From a virus (Duplodnaviria > Heunggongvirae > Uroviricota > Caudoviricetes), in IMG/VR virus record IMGVR_UViG_2877280126_000007: a stretch of 20,498 nt of DNA; one strand, 5' to 3'. Position numbers and translations under genes: made by a program. The notes beneath the pieces are model-generated. The model made no database searches, was not told where the DNA came from, and saw only the letters and a list, made by a program, of their open reading frames with translations. Below are positions 18,034-18,665 of this stretch, one piece after another; position 1 is the stretch's first letter; the number at the start of each line of letters is the position of its first letter.

Positions 18034-18054
18034 TTTTATGGGGCACCTTTCTGA

Positions 18055-18084
18055 TTGATTTCATATTGGCGAGGTAAGTAGAAT
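18055..18084 (+). promoter_or_regulatory. Probable sigma-70 promoter of the hok mRNA
   Basis: TTGATT (18055-18060), 18-bp spacer, TAGAAT (18079-18084). Predicted start near 18091 (GGGTGCTTGAGGC), which resembles the 5' end of plasmid R1 hok mRNA as I recall it. Confidence 0.5.
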
Positions 18085-18139
18085 GACTGCGGGTGCTTGA
18101 GGCTATCTGCTTCAGGCATGAACACCAAAAGGCAGATAG

Positions 18140-18212
18140 AGAAAAGCCCCAGTTAACATTACGCGTCCGGCAAGACGCTTAACATTAATCTGAGGCCAAT
18201 TTCATGCTTTGC
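18140..18212 (-). ncRNA. Putative sok-like antisense RNA
   Basis: Minus-strand promoter-like hexamers TTGCCT (18247-18242) and TAACCT (18224-18219) would give an antisense transcript across the mok-like start/leader (ATG 18204), as in hok/sok loci. Ends not defined. Confidence 0.35.
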
Positions 18213-18260
18213 ACATGTAGGTTAGCCTCTTACATGCCGAAAGGCAAGGAGAAGCAGGCT

Positions 18261-18416
18261 ATGAAGCAGCAAAAGGCGATGTTAATCGCCCTGATCGTCA
18301 TCTGTTTAACCGTCATAGTGACGGCACTGGTAACGAGGAAAGACCTCTGTGAGGTACGAATCCGAACCGGCCAGACGGAGGTCGCTGTCTTCGTAGACTA
18401 CGAATCCAGGAAGTAA
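18261..18416 (+). CDS. hok: Hok/Gef-family type I toxin (HokD/RelF-like)
   Basis: 51-aa ORF MKQQKAMLIALIVICLTVIVTALVTRKDLCEVRIRTGQTEVAVFVDYESRK with one transmembrane helix. AAGGAG Shine-Dalgarno. An in-frame upstream ORF from ATG 18204 is mok-like. Confidence 0.85.
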   Translation: MKQQKAMLIALIVICLTVIVTALVTRKDLCEVRIRTGQTEVAVFVDYESRK

Positions 18417-18492
18417 GAGTGACCGGGCGGGGAGCTGATCCCATCCCCGCCCACCTCTGATGTGTCAGGCATCCTCAACGCACCCGCACTTA

Positions 18493-18537
18493 ACCCGCCC
18501 ATCGCTGTGATCTCTCAGCGTTTCGGCGGGTTTTTTG
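18493..18537 (+). terminator. Rho-independent terminator at the hok mRNA 3' end
   Basis: CCCGCC (18495-18500) / GGCGGG (18525-18530) with an internal CGCTG/CAGCG stem, followed by TTTTTTG. Preceded by a GC-rich hairpin (18424-18450) that could be the 3' fold-back element. Confidence 0.6.
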
Positions 18538-18665
18538 TTGTTTATTTCCGGTGAATTTGATTCGCGCACCTTCGCAGATAGAATCGACTCACTTAAGTAG
18601 CGCGCAGGGAGAAGAGGGATGGACCCCGAACAGGGGAGAGCTATTTATCTGGAAGGATTCTGAAG

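Follow-up and report, generated by a model that had tools for sequence, protein, structure and literature searches.

A complete hok/mok/sok type I toxin-antitoxin locus lies at positions 18055-18537 of the window, the 20,498-nt stretch of DNA analysed here, and we describe its sequence elements, their conservation and their predicted pairings. The encoded Hok is identical to HokW of phage 933W at 50 of 51 residues and to HokD of the K-12 Qin prophage at 46 of 51, and the neighbouring genes are those of a lambdoid prophage, placing the locus by sequence in the prophage-borne HokD/HokW clade. Taking sequence, folding models and analogy together, the module very probably operates as R1 hok/sok and Sp5 hokW/sokW do. 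It is an ordinary copy of the hok/sok (hokD/hokW-type) module of lambda-like prophages, already known as a kind and essentially known as a sequence too, having been annotated in 933W and functionally studied (PMC8621323).

Elements and family membership of the locus

The features of the locus, in order of position in the window, are as follows (SD, Shine-Dalgarno sequence).

18055-18084, plus strand: hok promoter-like site from a pattern scan (-35 TTGATT at 18055-18060, 18-nt spacer, -10 TAGAAT at 18079-18084)
18066-18071, plus strand: relict ancestral -35 TTGGCG, now 7 nt from the -10
18091-18537, plus strand: predicted full-length hok/mok mRNA, ~447 nt, with the Rfam match starting at 18091
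18091-18102, plus strand: tac (translational activator) 5′ element GGGUGCUUGAGG, paired with fbi in the full-length fold
18142-18212, minus strand: predicted Sok antisense RNA, 71 nt, mapped from the 933W sokW misc_RNA and overlapping the first 9 nt of mok
18146-18152, plus strand: ucb, the anti-SD box GCCCCAG, predicted to pair with the mok SD region in the geometry of the R100 control fold and of PMC9841398
18204-18416, plus strand: mok leader ORF, 70 aa, in frame with hok and ending at a common stop codon (SD GAGG at 18192-18195)
18219-18247, minus strand: predicted Sok promoter (-35 TTGCCT at 18247-18242, 17-nt spacer, -10 TAACCT at 18224-18219; inferred start at 18212, 7 nt downstream)
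18224-18229, plus strand: dcb-like box AGCCUC, complementary to the mok SD region GAGGC(C), read from the sequence
18261-18416, plus strand: hok toxin ORF, 51 aa (SD GGAG at 18248-18251; HOK_GEF match)
18425-18452, plus strand: GC-rich 3′ stem-loop of 9 bp, from folding
18473-18485, plus strand: fbi (fold-back inhibition) element CCUCAACGCACCC, complementary to tac
18492-18536, plus strand: intrinsic terminator, from folding (stem 18492-18499 / 18525-18532, then TTTTTT)

In a search against Rfam, a check that the initial annotation had proposed, family RF01794 matches 18091-18266 on the plus strand at 117 bits against a threshold of 59 (E 1.8e-26), covering model positions 1-157 of 157, and it is the sole above-threshold match across the whole 20.5-kb window. 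The match starts where the leader sequence GGGTGCTTGAGGC begins, with G as position +1, bearing out the resemblance to the 5′ end of R1 hok mRNA that had been noticed in this leader. A second RNA family was not found when 17950-18750 was searched against Rfam at E <= 1, which returned just two chance-level matches. The Hok ORF matches Pfam PF01848 (HOK_GEF) at 81.1 bits, against a cut-off of 22, over the full 42-position model. NCBIfam was dropped as a membership test, since it gave sub-threshold scores alone (55 bits for the Hok subfamily model NF007279, under its curated cut-off of 73, and 39 bits for the HokA model, with a cut-off of 89) and a HokD-specific model is absent from it.

Hok differs from HokW at one residue (R50 here, E50 in HokW) and from K-12 HokD at five, all within residues 45-51, in line with the earlier remark that the toxin departs from HokD near the C-terminus alone. 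The same protein is annotated as hokD by PGAP in an identical E. coli locus (WP_014532198.1), and the exact Hok protein is present in 3093 index blocks of the assembly collection. The hokW-sokW pair is a functional type I toxin-antitoxin system, in which sokW transcribed from its own promoter suppresses toxicity (PMC8621323); by analogy with that pair, one Hok residue apart, the Hok of the window would be toxic and repressed by Sok.

The hok Tyr47 codon lies within CUACGAA at 18398-18404, and TACGAA is invariant in 6 of 6 aligned hok genes, including that of the R1-type locus. The local fold predicted for the window allele puts the UACG motif in a stem, not in a loop. This motif is linked to the TadA A-to-I recoding, Tyr to Cys, that has been reported for hokB, hokC, hokD and hokE.

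When the locus is aligned with the functional-phage relatives mEp460 and HannyBb, with E. coli prophages and with 933W, none of tac, ucb, the mok SD and ATG, the Sok promoter, the Sok hairpin, the hok SD and ATG, and fbi shows a disrupting change. The initial description of an apparently intact type I toxin-antitoxin module is upheld by this alignment, in which tac, ucb, both SDs, both ATGs, Sok and fbi are all undamaged.

The 527-nt region is 100% identical in 2 complete E. coli genomes among 5426, is ~91% identical over 18034-18498 in thousands of other E. coli genomes, and has some match in 4713 of the 5426 (median 2 places per genome, up to 9). The best-annotated phage match is 933W/VT2-Sakai, in which mokW, hokW and sokW are all annotated. 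The hokW/mokW/sokW locus of 933W and Sp5 (VT2-Sakai) is like that of the window, with ~91% DNA identity over 18068-18495, from just upstream of the -10 to beyond fbi, and it has the same geometry, in that mokW (70 aa) and hokW (51 aa) end at one stop codon and the 71-nt sokW overlaps mokW by 9 nt. Specifically, the Sok hairpin, the Sok terminator and the promoter hexamers are identical, whereas seven substitutions fall in the Sok 5′ tail and mok codons 2-4, the hok terminator differs, and 933W has a TTGCGG-type -35 and a different sequence upstream of the -10. The genomic positions differ as well: hokW lies near the right end of the 933W genome, and the window locus lies in a queH-rem region.

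The positional counterpart in K-12 is hokD (relF) of the Qin prophage, where the order is hokD-rem-...-Q antiterminator and where the same fbi and terminator core and a homologous hok-rem intergenic region are found. The homology begins at window position 18247, immediately ahead of the hok SD; upstream of that point K-12 has relBE, and tac, ucb, mok and sok are absent there. The window locus is therefore the complete form of the K-12 stump, and as such it could provide a natural template for studies of regulation in the HokD branch. The parB locus of R1/R100 has its elements in the same order as the window (tac, ucb, mok SD, Sok gene, dcb, hok, GC hairpin, fbi), is predicted to form the tac-fbi and ucb-SD pairings as well, and has a 70-aa mok. 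Its Hok, however, is only 43% identical to that of the window, its mok is read in the +1 frame and ends 4 nt short of the hok stop codon, and it resides on a plasmid, whereas the window locus resides in a prophage. The hokC/mokC/sokC (gef) locus of K-12 also has an in-frame mok, and its sokC and mokC start have 9 nt in common; HokC and the window Hok are 78% identical, the 5′ end GGGTGCTTGAGGC is identical and the DNA is ~75% identical. Unlike the window locus, hokC lies in the core chromosome, adjoins nhaA and has IS186 downstream.

RF01794 bears the name 'sok antitoxin', and its match lies on the hok-sense (+) strand, where it extends from the 5′ end of the mRNA as far as the hok AUG. The model starts GGGUGCUUGA and ends at the hok AUG, and therefore describes the sense hok mRNA leader, with the Sok RNA inside it on the opposite strand; automated annotation from RF01794 would assign Sok the wrong strand and the wrong length. 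The initial annotation had called the antisense control element unannotatable by ORF finders. This stands insofar as the identical E. coli locus is annotated with hokD alone, but Rfam covers the region, and 933W and K-12 carry sok. Beyond annotation the significance of the locus is small: gene calling records the 51-aa toxin ORF alone, and the mok leader, the Sok RNA and the mRNA control elements stay unannotated in genomes with this allele.

The mok leader and the Sok gene

The mok ATG at 18204 is exactly 57 nt upstream of the hok ATG at 18261 and reads in frame into hok, as had been noticed at the outset and as the ORF list confirms (70 aa and 51 aa). In R100, mok spans 465-677 (70 aa) and hok spans 523-681, an offset of 58 nt that gives the +1 frame, in agreement with the numbering and the G176T stop in PMC9841398, and the +1 frame given for R1 mok in the initial annotation is borne out. 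The contrast first drawn between the window and R1 holds for R1, but an in-frame mok is routine elsewhere: it is found in mokW (933W and VT2-Sakai), in K-12 mokC, which has its stop codon in common with hokC, and in most viral-contig loci. In particular, an ATG exactly 57 nt upstream of hok with no intervening stop is present in 61 of the 76 analysable HokD/W-clade loci from viral contigs, and the remaining 15 have an in-frame stop or no ATG at that place. A +1-frame mok is found in R1/R100 and in K-12 mokB. Judged by these sequences, the mok frame is a free variable and no defining or distinguishing feature, which fits the published view that mok translation matters and that the Mok product is not thought to (PMC9841398).

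We think it highly improbable that ATG 18204 merely extends the ORF by chance and marks no mok-type leader. Any upstream in-frame ATG without a stop lengthens an ORF, and the Mok peptide itself is not thought important (PMC9841398), but the fixed, stop-free 57-nt spacing in those 61 loci argues against chance, as do the GAGG SD 8 nt upstream of the ATG, which is the partner of the conserved anti-SD, the position of ATG 18204 within the Sok target, and the annotation of equivalent ORFs as mokW and mokC.

An R1-like plasmid locus, L007 (pMTY1886_IncFII, 394-609), has a Hok identical to that of R1 and a leader 1 nt shorter than that of R100, so that its upstream ATG is in frame, not +1. It provides a natural example of a mok frame switch within one lineage. 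The idea that R1 mok is itself in frame, which came from the pMTY1886 ATG, was rejected, as R100 and the numbering in PMC9841398 give the +1 frame.

The minus strand carries the parts of a Sok gene at the level of sequence and structure, and its transcription is predicted. The predicted Sok consists of a single-stranded 5′ tail of 15 nt, one long hairpin and the 3′ end GGGGCUUUU, with a fold of -28.6 kcal/mol (z = -4.7). It is identical to SokW at 64 of 71 nt; the hairpin is identical, and all seven differences lie within the first 16 nt. The antisense hexamers that had been picked out at 18247-18242 and 18224-18219 are the very ones upstream of the annotated 933W sokW, with one substitution in the spacer, and mutation of the sokW -10 region abolishes antitoxin activity (PMC8621323).

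A comparison of 53 distinct relatives shows almost no variation in tac, ucb, the Sok hairpin, the two SDs or the Sok promoter, and variation in the leader is greatest in the loop of the tac stem (18121-18130) and at the mok start/Sok 5′ tail (18197-18215). The latter segment comprises mok codons 2-5 together with the Sok 5′ tail, and is flanked by nearly invariant elements. The Mok N-termini found among relatives include MLNTC, MSHKC, MLCTC, MLYTR and MNGKS.

The hok mRNA and its promoter

The predicted RNA 18091-18537 has a minimum free energy (MFE) of -189.6 kcal/mol (z = -8.5 versus shuffles). In its MFE structure, tac (18091-18102) is predicted to pair with fbi (18473-18485) over 12 bp, and the mok SD region (18190-18196) is predicted to pair with ucb (18146-18152), with A18193 opposite C18149. 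As a control, the 398-nt R100 mRNA was folded by the same procedure, and the tac-fbi pairing and the SD/anti-SD helix were recovered, with A106 opposite C74, an apposition reported for R1-type hok mRNA (PMC9841398). The control reproduces the known pairings and thus validates the folding method on the paradigm. The open tac-ucb form was absent from the MFE folds of 3′-shortened RNAs (ends 18455-18472), in which the mok SD remains paired and tac pairs with 18110-18119 as a 5′ hairpin, resembling the R1 metastable structure (PMC9841398). By inspection, tac and ucb are able to pair (GGG-U-GCUU with AAGCCCC), and refolding after 3′ processing, the activation step, is proposed here by analogy alone.

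The paired elements are well conserved. Specifically, tac is invariant among relatives, and fbi is identical in 7 of 7 sequences of the 3′ alignment, with an exact copy in 58 of the 76 viral-contig loci. Furthermore, TAGCCTCTTAC is conserved in alignment from R1-type loci to the window locus, and the dcb-like box may play the role assigned to it in the R1 model.

The 3′ GC hairpin and terminator named in the initial annotation are recovered by folding, which gives the hairpin at 18425-18452, fbi at 18473-18485, and a stem at 18492-18532 followed by a T-run. The stem of the GC hairpin is maintained in relatives through different sequences and, by analogy, would be the protective 3′ hairpin of the processed mRNA. 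A consensus terminator scan found no terminator at the locus, because the loop is too long here and exceeds the 8-nt limit of the scan; the terminator was identified by folding instead. An insertion of 23 nt in the loop (about 18499-18521) folds into a small hairpin of its own, and the terminator of other relatives is a simple AACCCGC-TTCG-GCGGGTT. The insertion is present in 5 of the 76 viral-contig loci, also alongside other promoter types.

The TTGATT-18-TAGAAT site reported at 18055-18084 is present there by pattern scan. In a scan of 800 nt, however, two such patterns were found against 1.0 +/- 1.0 expected, which is not above chance; the case for a promoter therefore lies in the location of the site, 6 nt upstream of the conserved 5′ end of the mRNA. 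Alignment reveals TTGGCG-17-TAGAAT in mEp460, HannyBb, Z1323 and IHE3034, and a spacer that is 10 bp shorter in the window, with TAACGGTAGT missing and the deletion at about 18074/18075. Owing to this deletion, TTGGCG is now 7 nt from the -10 and TTGATT has shifted from 28 to 18 nt, so TTGATT-18-TAGAAT is a by-product of the deletion, the ancestral form being TTGGCG-17-TAGAAT. Both the replacement TTGATT and the lost TTGGCG match the consensus at 4 of 6 positions. The hok promoter is remodelled relative to every aligned E. coli and phage relative.

Prophage context and possible roles

The module belongs to the early-right (nin-like) region of a lambdoid prophage, with queH on one side and a rem-like gene on the other. 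The order queH-hok-rem-DUF1367 matches that of intact E. coli prophages, which read queH - hokD - small ORF - DUF1367 or DUF968 - ... - Q. The hok segment spans 17212-19298 (2087 nt) and comprises queH, hok/sok, the rem-like ORF and a DUF1367 gene truncated at 19298, with inverted IS600 copies on both sides; other parts of this prophage are found dispersed and in inverted orientation at other places in the window. The IS600 copies are as follows.

13693-14356: partial IS600 copy
14354-15617, minus strand: IS600 copy
15948-17211, plus strand: IS600 copy
19299 to the window end (20498), minus strand: IS600 copy

A composite transposon of the form IS600-[queH-hok/sok-rem]-IS600 was considered and rejected, since the related loci L012 and L009 share 17210-19298 and the right IS junction, and on the left side ordinary prophage genes stand in place of IS600.

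The upstream neighbour queH, a prophage-borne epoxyqueuosine reductase gene (17347-18033; Pfam QueH, 220 bits), has its stop codon 22 nt before the hok -35, and many E. coli prophages preserve the queH-hok pairing.

The 10-bp promoter deletion and the 23-nt terminator insertion are both present in every fetched locus with an identical Hok except L011, whose 3′ part is separated by IS21 and was not recovered; they also co-occur in other contigs with the same allele. Two of the identical-Hok loci, L011 and L015, carry an IS21-family insertion that separates the GC hairpin from fbi within the hok 3′ UTR and detaches fbi and the terminator from the mRNA; the junction overlap at 18447-18450 suggests a 4-bp target duplication. 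Another sister locus, L013, has a 28-nt tandem duplication within the tac stem-loop, at about 2834-2861 (= window 18099-18112), in which AGGCTATCTGCTTC is repeated.

From homology with R1 hok/sok and Sp5 hokW/sokW, we infer how the module may be transcribed, processed and made toxic, and what it may do. The weak hok promoter would give rise to a stable ~447-nt mRNA, in which the 5′ tac would pair with the 3′ fbi and the upstream anti-SD box would sequester the mok SD, so that, as we propose, the full-length RNA would be neither translated nor bound by Sok. Slow 3′ trimming to the GC hairpin would then remove fbi and permit refolding, whereupon ribosomes could start at the mok ATG (18204) and, by reading through the hok start region, would make possible the coupled translation of the 51-aa membrane toxin. 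Meanwhile, a constitutive antisense promoter inside mok would produce the short, unstable Sok, running from 18212 to 18142, whose free 5′ tail would pair with the mok start, block mok and hence hok translation, and mark the duplex for RNase III. Once Sok synthesis stopped, the stable pool of hok mRNA would be translated and the cell would be damaged or killed.

The same locus might instead be structurally complete but attenuated or silent, a neutral relic in a decaying prophage, with the promoter deletion and/or the terminator insertion lowering or altering hok mRNA. We consider this unlikely, though it deserves serious weight. The remodelled promoter and the reduction of the prophage to 2.1 kb between inverted IS600 copies are in its favour, as are the sister genomes with IS21 in the 3′ UTR or the 28-nt duplication in the tac stem, from which it follows that damage to the locus is tolerated; in addition, according to bioRxiv 10.1101/2025.08.07.668861, chromosomal hok loci tested earlier gave no post-segregational killing. 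Yet the two ORFs with their SDs, tac, fbi and the Sok gene are all undamaged, the new -35 scores as well against the consensus as the lost one, the exact Hok is retained across thousands of index blocks, and the joint presence of deletion and insertion in other contigs with this allele likewise speaks against silencing.

Two further roles can be proposed for the module, and each seems improbable for this locus. After mitomycin C, HokW raised lysis and doubled the release of Sp5, and this depended on RecA (PMC8621323); by the same token the module could aid prophage-induced lysis and phage release when Sok vanishes after SOS induction, rather than act in stabilisation (addiction). Against such a role, however, the prophage is fragmented and rearranged by IS600 and its DUF1367 gene is truncated, making productive induction unlikely, and the genomic position differs from that of 933W hokW. 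Alternatively, an infecting phage that shuts off host transcription could deplete Sok and release Hok, leading to abortive infection or phage exclusion. According to a report cited in PMC8621323, R1 hok/sok on a high-copy plasmid reduced T4 plating; however, hok was not enriched near defence systems in a survey (bioRxiv 10.1101/2025.08.07.668861), and no feature of the window bears on exclusion.

In this allele the hok transcript is rewired at both ends, by the deletion that swaps the -35 and by the hairpin in the terminator loop, and this could conceivably alter how much hok mRNA is present or how fast it is processed at its 3′ end and activated. As a separate matter, the hypervariable segment 18197-18215 may be a specificity determinant that lets several hok/sok copies coexist without cross-repression. 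Both ideas are speculative and we would not expect them to hold. The allele could also be used to ask whether modules of this kind in decaying prophages are tuned by small indels in the promoter and terminator.

Downstream of the locus lies another promoter-like site, TTGATT-16-TAGAAT (18557-18584), followed by a conserved 5′ UTR and the 95-aa rem-like ORF at 18666-18953, which carries the Pfam label 'Rem' in the collection. This 5′ UTR is homologous to the K-12 hokD-rem intergenic region, and a small hairpin in it, CCCC-GAACA-GGGG here and CCCT-TAA-AGGG in K-12, appears to be kept by compensatory change.
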